Assembly: GCA_951406725.2 (NCBI GenBank)
Contig: OX597822.1
Location: 13,330,001 to 13,394,000, forward strand
Direction of reading: 5' to 3'
DNA length: 64,000 nucleotides
Origin: Octopus vulgaris
Taxonomy: Eukaryota
The position numbers and the translations under genes were made by a program. How positions within the stretch are numbered: the stretch's first letter is position 1; every line of letters starts with the position of its first letter. Below, piece after piece: positions 4,640 through 47,800 of this stretch. The notes under the pieces are model-generated. The model was not told the DNA's origin. It worked only from the letters and a program-made list of their open reading frames with translations, and searched no databases.

Positions 4640-5834
4640 AATAAAAGGAATTCCAACCTTGTCTGATTTTCACGTTTTATTTACAATCTTATAATGATAT
4701 AAGATAATATAATAAAATAAAATAAAATAATAGAATGTTAAATGTTCATTCTGTTTGAACTAGTACTTTCATGCATTAAATTCTGCAATCTTCAGGTCCA
4801 TGTAGTAGTGGTGACAGTCATGCTTCACAATTTTTTACTGTAGCGAGATGATTAAATCTGTGTCTTAAATACAGCTGTGTAGGCTCCAGATTGCTACGTT
4901 TTGCAAACTGTATTCTGACCAACCAGTGTGTAGTATCACTCAATTACTTAAACTGATTGGTTTAGGCGTCACGCTTTGTTGAACATGTCAAGAGTCCTGT
5001 ATCTTAACCCTGGCCGAGGCAACAATCGTTGGGCTATTTTTAGAAATGTTGTAAATAGCCTTTGTCAGGGATTTTTATATTTCAATTGGCATCATCATCA
5101 TTGTCAGCACCTTAATTATTGTTGCTAGTGGTGATGGTGGTGGCAATAGAACTTTTAACCCTAAATAAGATAATTTTCCTGCTACCTTCATCTTGATCAC
5201 CTTTAGTATTGTTGTTGTTGTTAGTGGTCATGGTCGTAGCAGTAGAAGTAGTACCTCTAAGTATTATTATTATTGCTTATTTAGCTTGGGTTCGAATTTA
5301 TCAATAAAATTCTTTTCTCTGATTTTCCTCTCGATTTCACTTGGGCTGTGTAATTTGTAGAATGGAAATATTATATATATTTTCCGACCACATGTTGCTA
5401 GGTGGTTACTCAAAGGTATCTAACGGACCTCTGGGTCTCTAATCTGTTGTCGGTGTACAGGTGAGCGTTCTGATAGTGCATTTCCCGTCTGACCTACATA
5501 TATTTCTTCAAAATTTGGGCATTTGATGCAGTAAATTAAATTTCTGCTTTTTCAGTTCATATTCGCGTTTGTGAATATTTTCGCGGTTCTTGTGTTTATA
5601 TATTGGCTGGTATGTATGAATTGGTATGTGCCACAACGGCTATCATTGCATTTAGATACAGTGGTCTTTGTTGCTAAGGTCAAATTTTGCCTTTGTTAGT
5701 AATTTTTTCAAGTTTTTAGGCTAAGAACCATAGCTCGATCCGTGATTATATCTTTCAATTCATTACTTTGAGCAATGATTGGTAGGTTTGCTTTGGCAAT
5801 GTTGAAGATATTCTGGTGACATGGGTTGTGTGTC

Positions 5835-8213: not shown

Positions 8214-11120
8214 GTTTCTTTATTGGCCACACAGGGCTGGACACAGATGGGACAAATTACAAGGTAGAGCTTTTCTTTTCAGGGATGAAAAAAAACAGTG
8301 GCGTAGGTTTTCGATCAAAAGGGATCGTAAAAAGGAAAAAAGAAAAAAGAAAAAAAGGAAAAGAAACAAAAGAAAAGAAAAAAGAAAAAATAGGAAAAAA
8401 GGGGAAGAGGAAAAAAAACGATCAATAGAGATCGTGTATCACAGTGTCATGATGTACGGTGTAAAGGGGGAAGCAGATAAGGTTTATCCGTGGGAAGAAA
8501 AGCCTACGAAAAAGACCACGGTAACCCCGGTCAATATTGTTATATGTTACCACATTTGTTTGCAAGTGGGTAACCCACTGTTTTCAATTTCTGGGTTCAT
8601 AGGATTATGCTCAAGGTGGCTTCGTCATTCATACGTGCCATCCTTGCTACATTCACCCATCTTTTTTTAAAACATTCGCTAGACAAAACTTGCCTCTCTA
8701 CTCTCACTTTCCTTTTCAAGTGGTACTTGAAGAAGTTGATGAGAGATTGACCAGAGAGGAAAGTGTTTGTCTCCAAGCCTTTCAGACGCGTCCACTAGAT
8801 ACATTCTTTCGCCATAGCAACAAGGATGATGAAAATACCTCTTCCTTCCCGTTTGAAGGAAGGAGGCGTGACAATATTGCCGATAGACTCAGCTGATAAA
8901 CCGACTCGTCCCACACGTGACAGCAGTTGTTCGACATAAGCCCACAGGACGGAAATTGTTGGACACTGCACGAGTGCGTGCAGAACGGTTTCGTCGCTCT
9001 GACCGCATCTCGGGCAGGTCGGCCCTGTGTTTCTCGAGCCGTGTCTGTAGAGCTTATCCCGAACGGGTAGCGCTTCTCGGTAGCACTGCTAGGCCAGGGA
9101 TCTCTGGAAATTGTCCATGGGCCCTGGCCCGAAAGTCGTCCCGAACAGGCGGGTCAGGCATTCCTCGTCGATGTCCAGGTTCGCCCCAAGATCGTCGTCG
9201 TACCTCCCCTCCACTAATCCCCTATAGAATGCTTGGGTTGTGATGGAGTCACTCAGGATCGACCCGGGACGGCAGAGTTGCTTGAGAGCAACGCGATACT
9301 CGCGGTGCCATTCGCCCTTCCTCGGGCTCTTTTTGATCCAGGACTGCAGTTCGGTCATGGAGACGAGCTGCGGGAAAGCGTGCCTCACAAACGGCGACCA
9401 CACCTGTTCACCGTCGTCTACGAAGAGCCTGAGGTGTCGCAGTCTCAGCGCGTGTCAGCGCATCATCAACCACGGCATGCCCAGTCCTCCTTTTAACGGG
9501 TGTTGACAGCAAATGGATCGCCTGACCATCGGGACGCATCCTTTACACAAGAAGCGAAAGAGAATGCGTTCTAGTTTGGTGATGGTAGTGTCGGGACAAG
9601 GTACGACGGTCAGGTGGTAGTAGATGACGGACGCGATGTACGAGTTCGCCACCTCCGCCCGACCTTTTAGGGACAGATTCCTCTCGGTCCATTGCCGGGC
9701 GAGAGTGACCAACCTGCTTGTTATCTCGTTCCAGTTCTTCTCCATTTGGAGGTCCGGACCGAACCAGACCACGAGCAACTCGACCGGACCGTCGGTCTAT
9801 CGTCCCACAACGGAGGCGCTGGTGGACGGCATGGGCTTGCTTCTCCAGGTGCCTAGTCGCAAGCCCACTGACTTTTCCCGGTTGATTTTCGCTCCTGTCA
9901 CCGCTCCGTAGTTTTTTAGTGTCTCGCCGACCTGCTCGATATGCTCGTGGCTAGACACTATGACGGTGACGTCGTCCGCGTATGCAGACACGCTCGTTCC
10001 GCATCCCAGTTCTCGCAGGATGCCCCTCAGAGTTGCCAGCTTCCGCAATAATGGCTCGAGAGTCAATATGTATAGAAGCGACCAGAGGGGGCATCCCTGA
10101 CGGACCGAACGTGCGATGTCGAAAGGTCTCGATAGATGTCCATTTACACGAATTACCGAACGGATGCCTCTGTACAAAGCGGCTATTCAGCCGCAGAAGA
10201 CGGGACCGAAGCCAGCCGCTCTGAGGACAGCCCCCAAGTATCGATGGTCTACCCTATCGAAAGCTTTCGATTGATCCAAATTTATCAGCGCCCCACCCAT
10301 GCCAGGTTCGTTAACTACCCTGTCTATGATGTAACGCATCAGGTGGAGGTTGTCATGGATGGTCCGGCCCGGCACGGCGCACGTTTGCGCCTTGTCGACC
10401 AGTTTCTCGATAACAAGCGCCAACCTCTTAGCTAACACCTTGACCAAAATTTTCAAGTCTGCATTAAGCAGAGTGATGGGCCTAAAGTTATCTATTACAT
10501 TTCCTTTGTTTAGATCTTTCTTCAGCAGTGTTACGGCTCCTCGGCTCACAAAACCAGGAATGCTCCCGTTTTGCTGCCAGTTGCAGTACACCGCAGCCAA
10601 GACGTCTCCAAACAAGTCTGGCATACAACTGTAAAGCTCGTAGGGTAGACCATCCAAACCCGGTGATTTGTCCCTCGAGCATTCTGCCATCGCGTCCTGC
10701 ACTTCCGCCGCCGTGATGGCACCTTCGCAATACCCTGCCTCTCTTGTCGATAGTCGTGGTAAGCTGTGTAGGTAGGCACTGAAGTCCACCCTACGTTCTT
10801 GCCCGCCACTCGTCCCGAACAGTCGGGCAAATGCTGTTGAAAGGCCTCACACATTTTACTTGGCTCGAGGAATTCGTGCCCCTGTTCATCTACCAGAGAC
10901 CGAATGGTGGCTTTGTTGCCCTATTGCGCCTCTGCCACCGGGCCTCTCAAGCGGCTCCAACACCTTCTTTCCTTAGAGCACGCATCCTAGCTCTGACAGC
11001 ACACCCTTCGTTGTTTGGCGTTGAAGTGTTGGTCGAGGGCCAGCCTCGCCGCCAAAACGTCGGATGCGATGCCGCTTCTAATTGCCTCTTCTAGCTTCTT
11101 AACTAGCTCACCCTCTACCC
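8213..11120 (-). mobile_element. 5'-truncated Tx1/L1-group non-LTR retrotransposon
   Basis: GC-rich island. RT motifs KSPGLDG, NFRPITLLNADLKI, LDQSKAFDRVDH, VRQGCPL, AYADDV, GGLGMP; zinc knuckle CPRCGQSDETVLHALVQCP at about 8960-9015; U-rich 3' UTR with AATAAA at 8219-8224. Confidence 0.93.
8597..11120 (-). pseudogene. LINE ORF2 (RT and CCHC) broken by stops and frameshifts
   Basis: Consecutive ORF pieces 10187-10789, 9797-10177, 9455-9778, 9089-9403; ends ...ATLSIIL* at 8597. Confidence 0.88.
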
Positions 11121-12082: not shown

Positions 12083-12119
<37 letters not shown>

Positions 12120-12120
12120 A

Positions 12121-12315
12121 AGTTAATTCAAACAAGAAAACAAAAACAAAAAAACAACAACGCAAGGACGTGGAACAAATAAAGTATTATTGGACGCTCA
12201 GGGAAGACGGAGGGTTTGACGTTTCGAGCGGAGCTCTTCGTCGGAAACAGAAGGATAGATCCCGAGAAGGGAAGACAGGGGAAAAAAATCGCTAGTGATA
12301 CAGACGAGGTCACAT
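12121..12315 (-). mobile_element. Short hammerhead-bearing repeat, family H1
   Basis: Motif at 12214-12248: GUUU-CCGACGA-A GAGC UCC GCUC-GAAAC GUC-AAAC. Related copies at 17500-17680, 24045-24147, 32490-32632, 33705-33905 and 38567-38750. Confidence 0.75.
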
Positions 12316-23973: not shown

Positions 23974-24048
<75 letters not shown>

Positions 24049-24424
24049 ATCCAAACAAGAAAACACAAGAAAACACAACAACGCGAGGACGTGGAACAAA
24101 TATAGAATTATTGGACGCTCATGAAAGAAGGGAAGAAGGAGGGTTTACATACACACACATAGGCACTCAATCTCATTGGCAAAGCAAACAACAACGCATC
24201 ACCATACATACGACTTGCACTCTGTCACCCCCTATTCTTAGAACCTGCCCCTTCCAACCATTTTTGAACTCTTGAACTTTTTAGAATCTTATCCATCCAA
24301 CCAAGTTTGACGTCACTGCTTATAACGGAATATTTTAAAGAAACACTCATTATCATTATGGACTCCGTGTGGGCAGTCATCTAAAAGCTTTTGTTCGTCA
24401 TGATGCTGACATAAGTTCCTTGTC

Positions 24425-24505
24425 TTTCCTGATGAGAAGACGGCATAATGCACCCTTTATTCCTTCGGAATTAAGAATATGCACTCTTCGAAACATATGT
24501 CGAGA
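24425..24505 (+). ncRNA. Type I hammerhead ribozyme motif, intact core, long stem II
   Basis: UUUC-CUGAUGA-GAAGA..GCAUA...UAUGC..UCUUC-GAAA-CAUAUG-UC-GAGA. Confidence 0.85.
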
Positions 24506-24703
24506 ATAAAGGAATTTTGTTAAATCGTCGGTCGACTCCATTCTTTCATTTATCTATAGTAAAAAAAACTCACAAATTTCCACACGAAAGCACGTGATTT
24601 CTGCCCTTGGCATGTAGCTTCAACCGTGCTTTCTGACGTAAATTTGCTACCCGGGTATCGGTTAACCGAATTATCCATACTAGGATAATTCATTCAACTA
24701 CTT

Positions 24704-24761
<58 letters not shown>

Positions 24762-25010
24762 TTAGTAATGCAATACTAGAGTATTGCTTTCCAGTAAAGA
24801 GTAGCCCTTCAGGGAAAAATATACAAAGAAGTAAATATATGGCACAACGAAGTACCGATATTTACTGGAAATAGCGAACGTAATAATACGACGCTAATGT
24901 ATAGCTTCACCGCGTATGTACTGGCAAAAATGCGTGTGTGCAACAAACTAGAAAAAATTGTCTTACCTCCAGGGAGAACAACTGAAAGATGAAATACCTG
25001 GAAAAGGATA

Positions 25011-25091
25011 ATGTGGGACCTGCGCAGGTTTCAGATTTTTCAAGATATGTCTGCTACCCATAAACTTGATATATCTTCATCAGCCAAACAT
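25011..25091 (-). ncRNA. Type I hammerhead ribozyme motif
   Basis: Inverted copy of 25389-25469 with intact core. Confidence 0.85.
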
Positions 25092-25388
25092 ATACCACGA
25101 CAACATTTCAGATGTTACCACATTAATGCCATTACACTCGAAGCTATACATTATCGTCGTATTATTACGTTCGCTATTTCCAGTAAATATCGGTACTTCG
25201 TTGTGCCATATATTTACTTCTTTGTATATTTTTCCCTCAAGGGCTATTCTTTACTGGAAAGCAATACTCTAGTATTGCATTACTAATTTATTGAAACTTC
25301 TTCACCGTTCTCGTGCTGTTAGCGTTTCGGCGTTTCAGTCGAGTGTAATGGCATTAATGTGGGCACATCTGAAAGGTTGTCGTGGTAT

Positions 25389-25469
25389 ATGTTTGGCTGA
25401 TGAAGATAGATCAAGTTTATGGGTGGCAGACATATCTTGAAAAATCTGAAACCTGCGCAGGTCCCACAT
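25389..25469 (+). ncRNA. Type I hammerhead ribozyme motif
   Basis: UGG-CUGAUGA(25397)-AGAU..UCAAG...CUUGA..AUCU-GAAA(25448)-CCUGCGCAGG-UC-CCA. Confidence 0.88.
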
Positions 25470-25651
25470 TATCCTTTTCCAGGTATTTCATCTTTCAGTT
25501 GTTCTCCCTGGAGGTAAGACAATTTTTTCTAGTTTGTTGCACACACGCATTTTTGCTAGTACATACGCGGTGAAGCTATACATTAGCGTCGTATTATTAC
25601 GTTCGCTATTTCCAGTAAATATCGGTACTTCGTTGTGCCATATATTTACTT

Positions 25652-25738
<87 letters not shown>

Positions 25739-25820
25739 TGCATATATATATGTTTATATGTATATATATATGTATACATACATATATATACACATATATA
25801 TGAGTGATTATATGGGTGAC

Positions 25821-25888
<68 letters not shown>

Positions 25889-32490: not shown

Positions 32491-32627
32491 TTATGTTTCT
32501 GACGAAGATCTCCGCTCGAAACGTTAATTCCTCCTTCTTTCTTTCCTTTCCTGAGCGTCCAATAACACTATACTTGTTCCACGTCCTCACGTCGTTGTAT
32601 TTTCTCCTTGTATTTTCGTGTTTGGAT

Positions 32628-32632
<5 letters not shown>
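32490..32632 (+). mobile_element. Family H1 hammerhead repeat flanked by (TA)n on both sides
   Basis: GUUU-CUGACGA(32499)-AGAUCUCCGCUC-GAAAC GUU; ends ggattaac|tata. Confidence 0.75.
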
Positions 32633-32683
<51 letters not shown>

Positions 32684-43653: not shown

Positions 43654-43697
43654 ACAAAACGTTTCAGATGATATACCCTCCAGCCTTCATCAGGTGT
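43654..43697 (-). ncRNA. Type I hammerhead motif, slightly decayed
   Basis: ACAC-CUGAUGA-AGGCUG(10 nt)CAUCU-GAAAC GUU-UUGU. Confidence 0.7.
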
Positions 43698-45480: not shown

Positions 45481-47014
45481 GATAGGCAAAGGCAAAGCCC
45501 TTACCATTCGGGCCTATGTAGATACCTAAGCATCAAAATAAAGGGCTAAGTTTAACGAGGATCGTTCCTCTTCGTCAGTTTCTCAGCCTCTTTGCTTTCG
45601 GATAGTCTTGTTTCTGTTGTTCTTCAGCTTGACTTGCTTTCCAATTTCAATGAAGTGAACTGAACTACAGGAAATCAAGAGAATGCACACATATAATACA
45701 TACACACTTATCCTCATTTCGTGAATAAACATAGCACATTAACATGCACGTTCCATCTGTCCTTCTTTTATTGCACTGACTCTCTTTCACTCCTATCTTT
45801 AGGAGTCCGTACAAGGTTCAAAGTCCAGAAACCTCTCTTTCTATGAATTATGGATGAAAGCAGAGTATAATATTTAAAAAAATTTTATTTGATTTCAAAT
45901 TCTAAAACAGTCCTTAATTTTTCTCTATGGCGACGTATTGTCGAGTTTTTGTGCAGACACATATTCTTGAATACAGATACACACTCGTGAGTGTTTTATA
46001 TTATTAAAGGAGATAAAGAACCTGAACTTTAAAAATTATTAACATAGATTGATTGCCTATCATTTTATAGGTTTAAAATTGAAATAAACTTTACATAGAC
46101 TTAATTTACTTATAGATTTTTTTATGATACAATAAAATAAATCATTCAATGAGAATGAAAAAATATTCATGCTCGAAAAATAATGAAATAATATTTCATA
46201 TGATATCGATTTAATTTGAATTCTTAACTTTATAAAAACAGTAAAACGTTTGCCAAAAGGTTGTTTAAACAAATTTACTTACTTTATCATAATCAAAATA
46301 TTGCTTTTTTTCTATACAAACTTGAAAATAAAAGCTAAAAGTATCCTGACCCATATGAAAAGTTTTCTAAACCTCATAAAACTTTTTGCTTTCTAAAAAA
46401 TGTTTCTGCTTTGTCTGTATATGAAATCTATTTGCGCCCCATATAAATTTGGAAACCCTTACAAAGTTTTCTGCTCTCACTAAATACTAAATTTTTTTTC
46501 AAGCCCTCCTCTGAAAATTTTTTCTCTCATTAAAGATTTGCCATTCCTTCTAAAAATTTTACACATATCCAAAAATGTCTGTGCCACCTGAAGAATTTTT
46601 TGACCCACTTAGAAATTTTGTATCGCCAGTCGAGAAATCATTACAAGTCAAAGAAAAATTATTGAATTATCAGAAAACTAATACCAAGTAGCGGATCAAA
46701 TTTCCCATTGCTATCTTGAATACTCAGAAGTAAATTTCTGGTTGCCGAATGGATGTCGGGTCTGAATCTGGTCAATTAGATTTTTTTTTCATTTTAGTAC
46801 GCTCTGTTTATACGTTTTTAGTGGACGTCTGCACACACATGGTTAGAGATATACACATCGCGAATACATTATATATATATATACATTGATGAACAGACAC
46901 ATACATACATATATTCCAGAAGTTTATCATTTAAATATATATGAACATATCTAGATACGCAAGTTTATGCATGAGAATACATGCATAAAAAATGCATGCA
47001 AATTTACACACATA

Positions 47015-47800
47015 CATTCATAAACTACCGTCGGGAGACCTATTTGAACCGTCGGATAATATCGGAGACTTAGGTGTAACTGTCGACAGCAAACTTAGTT
47101 GGAGTGTGCACATCTGTAAAAAAGTCAGTGTTGCCCGCAGAATGTGCTCATGGATCCTCAGAACTTTTCAATATAGGGATCATGAAACCATCATCCTTCT
47201 CTTCTCCGCATTCGCGAGGCCCCCACCTCGAATACTGCTGCCAATTGTGGTCCCCCTACAAAAAACAAAACATAATGAGGATCGAAACGCCACAAAAATC
47301 AATGACAAAAAGAAAATAAATGGCACGATAGCACTTGATAATTGGGCTCGACTTAAACAGCTGAAGCTCTATTCTCTACAACGTTGCCGTGAGCGATACA
47401 TTATTTGCACCATGTGGAAAATATTCTACCAATATTATCCAAATGATATCTGTATTATGTTTACAATTCACCCAATACGAGGACCCCGTGCAATGCGTCC
47501 CCTACAAACGTCGAGATCACATCACATAAATATAATTACGAAGCAATTTCTTCACTGCAAATAGTCCTGCTCTTTTCAATGTTATCCCGAAAGAAATTAA
47601 GTAGAAAAAGACCCCAAAACTTTCAAACGGTACCTGGACAAATTCCTCCAGGAAATACCGGATAAACCACCTACACCTGGATACTCTCAACTAACAACAA
47701 CTCTCTGCTTGAGTGGTCAATGGAGTCCCGTAATATATAACTAAAAAACTTTTTTCCAGCTGGTGTTATTGAGGGGTTTAAAATGTAAGTTATCTAAGTT
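47015..47800 (+). mobile_element. CR1-clade LINE 3' fragment
   Basis: DLGVTVDSKLSWSVHI...WILRTF...RPHLEYCCQLWSPY...RLKQLKLYSLQRCRER, with frameshifts. Confidence 0.87.

Follow-up and report, generated by a model that had tools for sequence, protein, structure and literature searches.

How does a short, non-coding sequence come to lie head-to-head with a partial, inverted copy of itself inside a (TA)n microsatellite? The question is raised by a locus at positions 24761-25655 of the window, by which we mean the whole 64,000-nucleotide stretch of Octopus vulgaris DNA analysed here, taken from a microsatellite-rich genome of 2.8 Gb and 227 contigs. This locus belongs to a dispersed family of non-coding, 432-nt hammerhead elements, whose unit (U) we define as window positions 25140-25571. 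We consider it probable that a non-LTR retrozyme inserted here, and likely that a Penelope-like element (PLE) supplied, in trans, the reverse transcriptase-endonuclease, which primed both sides of a DNA break at two fixed internal sites of one RNA.

The locus consists of two arms of opposite orientation between TA repeats (24707-24760 on the left; 25656-25853 on the right, with TA from 25655). The left arm (24761-25141, minus strand, 381 nt) comprises U200-432 followed by U1-148, and differs from U at 10 positions, with no gaps, over a 385-nt alignment; it ends at a long fixed terminus, T2, and its outer boundary against the TA repeat is ambiguous within 24757-24761. The right arm (25140-25655, plus strand) comprises U1-432 followed by U1-84 and ends at a short fixed terminus, T1, with a similar ambiguity within 25654-25661; its period is 432 nt, and 88 of 90 positions are identical between passes. 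The arms meet at 25140-25141, overlapping by a 2-nt GA microhomology, and the sequence between T1 and T2, a tail of about 63 nt (24757-24824, minus strand), is found at the left end only. The arms are thus about 2.5% divergent, begin in different registers and end at different sites, and their hammerheads lie on opposite strands, each reading outward. Much of this had been anticipated by the original prediction, made from the letters of the window: a permuted 432-nt unit whose right arm re-enters its own start, an inverted left arm of about 380 nt in another register, the GA microhomology, TA repeats on both flanks (24707-24759 and from 25655), and one intact, outward-facing hammerhead in each arm, all of which were recovered here, with unbroken core letters at 25397 (plus strand) and 25083 (minus strand). 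What the present analysis adds is that the termini are fixed throughout the family, and paired.

Protein coding is absent from the locus, in agreement with the earlier view that it holds no meaningful ORF: outside the TA-repeat frames there is none longer than 97 aa, and a Pfam search with ten frames of the element returned a best match of only E 0.059. The locus therefore lacks the RT and GIY-YIG ORF of an autonomous PLE. One frame, which stops at the hammerhead core and at first sight resembled a PLE C-terminus, has no Pfam support and is unlike all the GIY-YIG loci examined, and an Rfam match to MIR5048 (54 bits, gathering threshold 160) is a product of the inverted repeat.

The same TA array holds a second, unrelated hammerhead family (24160-24706, plus strand; core at 24429) with a long stem II and a palindromic stem III, for which there are 1411 candidates; its fixed ends lie at about 24556 and 24706, giving a tail of about 150 nt, far above the published 30-40 nt. 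A third repeat family has ends adjoining (TA)n at 24040-24146, 32530-32636 and 12117-12217. A short hammerhead-like core occurs at 32499 and a further hammerhead-like core at 43693 (minus strand), and two frames (10187-10846, minus strand; 46989-47564, plus strand) resemble, by eye, fragments of LINE-type reverse transcriptases. Elsewhere in the genome, a young autonomous PLE family (L110:1164-3506, downstream to 4532) encodes a 781-aa RT and GIY-YIG ORF, with the full frame in many copies; its tail measures about 35 nt, and its hammerhead-like motif combines a palindromic stem III with an altered core, UUGAUAA.

In the right arm, the putative hammerhead spans 25384-25474 (plus strand) and is built of CUGAUGA (25397-25403), a 44-nt stem II (25404-25447), GAAA (25448-25451), a palindromic stem III (25452-25461) and UC (25462-25463), with cleavage predicted after 25463 (U324). 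Its counterpart in the left arm spans 25006-25096 (minus strand), the core starting at 25083 and the predicted cut falling after 25017. The flanks of each core are able to form a bulged stem I, which gives the type I topology with an open stem I. Rfam does not call the element a hammerhead, either at the gathering threshold or at E<=10; we assign it from the letters of the core, from base pairing, and from compensatory changes between copies. In 102 aligned copies, core letters are intact in 98 (the sampling favours intact ones), and none of 17 common variable columns falls within the core. The stem III pair U315/U320 is UA in 80 copies and GC in 19; the stem II pair U272/U301 is UA in 79 and AU in 21. 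These compensatory changes separate subfamilies, and represent two events rather than 40; a 2-nt deletion variant also leaves stem III palindromic. Together they suggest that the hammerhead is kept at subfamily level. In the minimum-energy fold, the core is paired into an alternative helix. A structured start region is predicted on the plus strand at 25177-25278, in which an 11-bp stem (25177-25187/25250-25260) encloses T1 and a hairpin (25261-25278) immediately precedes T2. The predicted fold of U20-160 has an energy of -31.0 kcal/mol (z -4.3; none of 200 shuffles as good), with base changes among copies that are one-sided only, and the predicted circular fold of the whole unit has a z of -3.0 (none of 60 shuffles as good).

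A search with U yielded 1509 candidates, of which 40 were scored; the hammerhead part yielded 596, and a 23-letter pattern matched exactly 146 times, so that the family has at least 146 copies. The unit is also present under five organism labels among public runs. Our analyses concern 89 independent loci, 86-100% identical to U, which were picked by similarity and are therefore biased toward long, intact copies. Eight duplicates were removed (L014-L017 and L019, which have flanks in common with L012; L049, with L048; L125, the mirror of L123; and L165, with L164), as were repeat retrievals of the same locus and a stray fragment in each of L010 and L163. Among the 144 arm ends at these loci, 76 lie at T1 (U79-94, mostly U85-90) and 58 at T2 (U143-153, around U148-152), together 134, with a spacing of about 63 nt. 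Both sites adjoin (TA)n, and since both are UA-rich the border with the repeat is blurred; a target-site duplication, which in non-LTR retrozymes is longer than 4 bp when present, is unreadable in such flanks. At single-arm loci, 28 of 32 T1 or T2 ends lie at TA. Matches reading through T2 continue into the unit in 96 of 100 cases and into TA in 4: the unit is closed, and remains so in all subfamilies, at 87-99% identity. The layout of non-LTR retrozymes is found at L006, L007, L009, L159 and L161; at the present locus the hammerheads are opposed. Mapping the registers at all 89 loci, as had been proposed at the outset, thus revealed two fixed 3' ends and scattered 5' ends. The original prediction had counted fixed termini against itself; fixed 3' termini do exist, but we read them as the internal start sites of a PLE, and on that reading they support the PLE model. 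At four loci (L032, L119, L151 and L123) the 5' end falls in an internal AT run, at U69, and in three cases it directly abuts (TA)n; these ends likely reflect microhomology to the target.

The two termini are not chosen independently. A head-to-head layout is present at 55 of the 89 loci, of which 46 pair T1 with T2, one pairs T1 with T1, none pairs T2 with T2, and eight have one end elsewhere. T1 and T2 are therefore paired, and a tail is found at one end, in 46 of the 47 loci where both ends are classifiable (binomial p 3.4e-13 versus independent choice); TA is present on both flanks of 44 of the 55. The sole T1+T1 locus, L164 (G000:C18), has an internal deletion in its plus arm, and in its duplicate, L165, a T2 fragment of 19 nt lies immediately beyond the T1 end. 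The pattern extends beyond this family. In the neighbouring, unrelated hammerhead family (30 loci, by eye), that family's own two ends are paired at all 11 classifiable inverted loci, one further inverted locus being unclassifiable; in the autonomous L110 family, T1 and T2 are paired at four of five, the fifth being a T2+T2 locus that forms a whole-locus palindrome, flanks included. Repetition in both families indicates that pairing belongs to PLE-type insertion as it occurs in this genome, and not to U. Near-obligate pairing in turn suggests that the two sides of the DNA break copy a single RNA. In the freely accessible articles consulted, mainly in their main text, we found no account of T1/T2 pairing counts or of the U family.

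What form that RNA takes is less clear-cut. Only 2 of the 144 5' ends fall at U322-330, where about 3 are expected, and the lack of a pile-up at the hammerhead cut site among these ends implies that synthesis passes the site. The longest arm, in L161 (1139 nt; 98.3% self-identical and 90% identical to U), crosses three cut sites, and arms reach 2.6 units. Directional differences between passes are confined to a single locus in 122 of 130 cases and occur in no more than three loci, which argues against a fixed two-unit master. We lean slightly towards a template cleaved to a 432-nt monomer and ligated into a circle, the other candidate being an uncleaved, homogeneous multimer; arm lengths, pass data and the circular fold fit a circle, but also fit other templates. 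None of the public runs recorded as RNA holds the unit, and runs guessed to be RNA contain only the joints of a continuous unit, which are also present in the genome. A plausible, if less probable, account keeps the same PLE machinery and supposes a linear, uncleaved template, a tandem read-through transcript for which the hammerhead is dispensable and no circle is needed. For the one PLE that has been assayed in vitro, mutating the hammerhead leaves insertion normal and most of the substrate is RNA that has not been processed (PMC11167929), and 8 of 9 Xenopus retrozyme dimers remained uncleaved in vitro (bioRxiv 2026.07.22.740005); sequestration of the hammerhead core in the minimum-energy fold, and the fact that most arms are shorter than 1.5 units, point the same way. 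However, repeated 5' truncation would be expected to erode a tandem, yet the subfamilies retain the closed unit; successive passes share private variants without fixed unit-to-unit differences; and stems II and III have undergone compensatory change.

The case for a single template is carried by variants common to both arms. In a test of 70 loci, non-majority letters common to opposite arms numbered 73, against 12.1+-5.7 for arms drawn from other loci (maximum 32 in 500 draws), and those common to successive passes numbered 50, against 5.6+-2.8, the null not being matched for age. The arms of a locus belong to the same subfamily. Seventeen variants private to one of the 89 loci recur in two arms or passes, nine in opposite arms and eight in the same arm, and at multiply covered sites 123 of 140 private variants are confined to one arm or pass. 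The present locus contributes U360T, found in both of its arms; at window position 24981, the site of U360, every contig of four public runs reads otherwise. Such sharing could also be produced if arms undergo gene conversion, or if a single source copy dominates at any one time. The latter bears on a rather unlikely alternative, in which two independent RNAs prime the two sides of the break and an asymmetric enzyme imposes T1 on one and T2 on the other: pairing by itself does not need a single RNA, a dominant source would make the arms look alike, and wide overlap of arms on one RNA requires strand displacement. Against it stand the private variants in opposite arms, that at U360 included.

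Priming of both sides also has to be weighed against a single priming event, after which the inverted arm would arise from self-priming or fold-back of the cDNA, or from an antisense template, one tail being trimmed by endonuclease resolution. Self-priming has been proposed for rotifer PLEs from junction palindromes (PMC3846280) and the tail ascribed to endonuclease resolution (PMC8557442); this explanation likewise predicts one tailed and one untailed end, as well as shared variants, and the junctions of L143 and L175 do fall on a hairpin at U119-142, with 24-nt overlaps. We regard it as more doubtful again, because most junctions join unrelated registers rather than palindromes. Across the 55 inverted loci, with borders taken from BLAST, arms overlap by 0-4 nt at 33 and by 6-24 nt at 8, and are separated by a small gap at 14; either arm may be the longer, and it is common for an arm to contain sequence missing from its partner. 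In vitro, extension of both strands begins at internal sites of the RNA (PMC11167929). Finally, an assembly fold-back or later inverted duplication of DNA is very unlikely, despite a whole-locus palindrome at L183 of another family and the fact that no contig listed from four public runs bridges 25140-25141 (a result neutral on the junction itself), since the arms differ at 10 of 385 sites, start in different registers and end at different fixed termini, the flanks are not mirrored, and 55 independent loci have distinct junctions.

Priming from both sides of a break on one RNA thus remains the reading we prefer, and the two fixed 3' termini next to (TA)n, the scatter of 5' ends, overlaps of 0-4 nt and variants shared between arms bear out the original suggestion of two-sided reverse transcription of a retrozyme or PLE type. 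The proposed sequence of events is as follows. Transcripts of the U family would be cleaved by the hammerhead to a 432-nt monomer, which would be ligated into a circle. A PLE protein dimer may then bind the structured U20-160 region, with one subunit at each start site, and nick (TA)n on both strands. With UA-rich pairing over 3-5 nt at either start, one side of the break would be primed at T1 and the other at T2 of the same RNA. Both cDNAs would be extended past the hammerhead, that from T2 displacing a strand as it passes T1, and the two cDNA 3' ends would be joined by microhomology to yield the head-to-head junction; single-arm copies could result when one side fails to extend. More speculatively, a single circular RNA may be reverse-transcribed by a PLE dimer whose subunits sit on two fixed sites of that circle, one for each side of the break, in rolling-circle fashion with strand displacement, in which case T1+T2 pairing might be a general law of EN+ PLEs, and the enzyme, for want of a sequence-matched partner, would recognize RNA structure and not sequence.

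The search for such a partner began from the GIY-YIG domain. A profile search with PF01541 gave 6136 candidates, of which 150 places were scored and 49 distinct ones examined; none of the 49 shares sequence with U (best E 0.09). Most have a CxxC motif upstream of GIY-YIG, a feature of Neptune and Nematis (PMC8557442). Pattern searches with a shorter stem II gave no matches, and pattern searches showed no extension of the unit into an ORF; in the 80 nt upstream of the core at 100 of the 146 pattern matches, no foreign sequence recurred by eye, bar one duplicated locus. The one foreign match of 55, L141, was rejected as a partner because only stem III is in common with U; it is a short element (~5657-5736; G000:C14:72748657) with the same stem III and a different, long stem II, flanked by (TA)n on one side and a long stretch of (AAT)n on the other. 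Likeness of end motifs to the L110 family was not significant (p 0.08-0.95).

Judged from the genome, the U family is a non-LTR retrozyme that appears to act like a non-autonomous PLE, with the known PLE insertion signature. The origin of inverted, one-tailed PLE insertions is described as open in PMC8557442 and PMC3846280, and the idea that PLEs mobilize animal retrozymes is a hypothesis drawn from co-occurrence and pLTR similarity (PMC7229834; bioRxiv 2026.07.22.740005). A 432-nt retrozyme with the full PLE signature offers the existing in vitro PLE assay a substrate of minimal size and a sharply defined prediction, and a clean, quantitative pairing rule makes the mechanism of PLE inversion testable. 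As the component parts are already known, a PLE specialist may not be greatly surprised.

Compared with known systems, the family is unlike plant-type LTR retrozymes, which have type III hammerheads, direct LTRs, a PBS, a PPT and a 4-bp TSD: its hammerhead is of type I, and it has no LTR-internal-LTR layout. In LINE-1 twin priming, the two sides of a break share one RNA as template, which gives an inversion with a microhomology junction, the second site being variable and the two parts barely overlapping; in the U family, both sites are fixed and internal, arms overlap by up to hundreds of nucleotides, and there is no poly(A). Metazoan non-LTR retrozymes are closer. Circles have been shown in coral, mussel and axolotl, with PLEs proposed as mobilizers (Cervera and de la Pena 2020; PMC7229834), and retrozymes have been described as non-autonomous PLE derivatives (Li, Clavereau, Pollet; bioRxiv 10.64898/2026.07.22.740005). 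As in those elements, a non-coding unit of a few hundred nucleotides and less than 50% GC carries one type I hammerhead, occurs in partial tandems, has a compact predicted circular fold, and has a PLE as its proposed mobilizer. As far as those sources describe them, however, metazoan retrozymes occur in tandem arrays with TSDs, whereas the U copies seen are dispersed and frequently head-to-head, have two fixed end sites, and do not exceed 2.6 units in any one arm. The unit length falls outside the 170-400 nt of PMC7229834 and within the 51-972 bp of the bioRxiv study; the 44-nt stem II is a further point of difference.

Non-autonomous Chlamys PLEs, such as MRC1, are also non-coding PLE derivatives and form pLTRs and head-to-tail copies, but usually have 3' sequence in common with an autonomous family and belong to a clade without canonical hammerheads (PMC8557442); U has a hammerhead, and no matching partner was found. 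From EN+ PLEs the U family differs in having no RT or GIY-YIG ORF, no sequence-similar autonomous partner among those found, a tail of about 63 nt rather than 30-40 nt, and an entire element that amounts to one closed, permuted unit. In PMC11167929, two internal RT starts bound the tail, with no difference in start site seen between strands, both strands are nicked and extended, a dimer is predicted, and the hammerhead is dispensable in vitro; PMC8557442 describes an inverted, 5'-truncated copy, often with a 30-40 bp tail at one end, leaving the mechanism open, and PMC3846280 an optional tail on one inverted pLTR, with self-priming suggested. With the EN+ PLEs of these three reports, the U family has in common the partial tandem, the inverted 5'-truncated copy, the one-ended tail and two internal starts, together with AT-rich or (TA)n targets, a hammerhead upstream of the start sites, and microhomology at 5' junctions.
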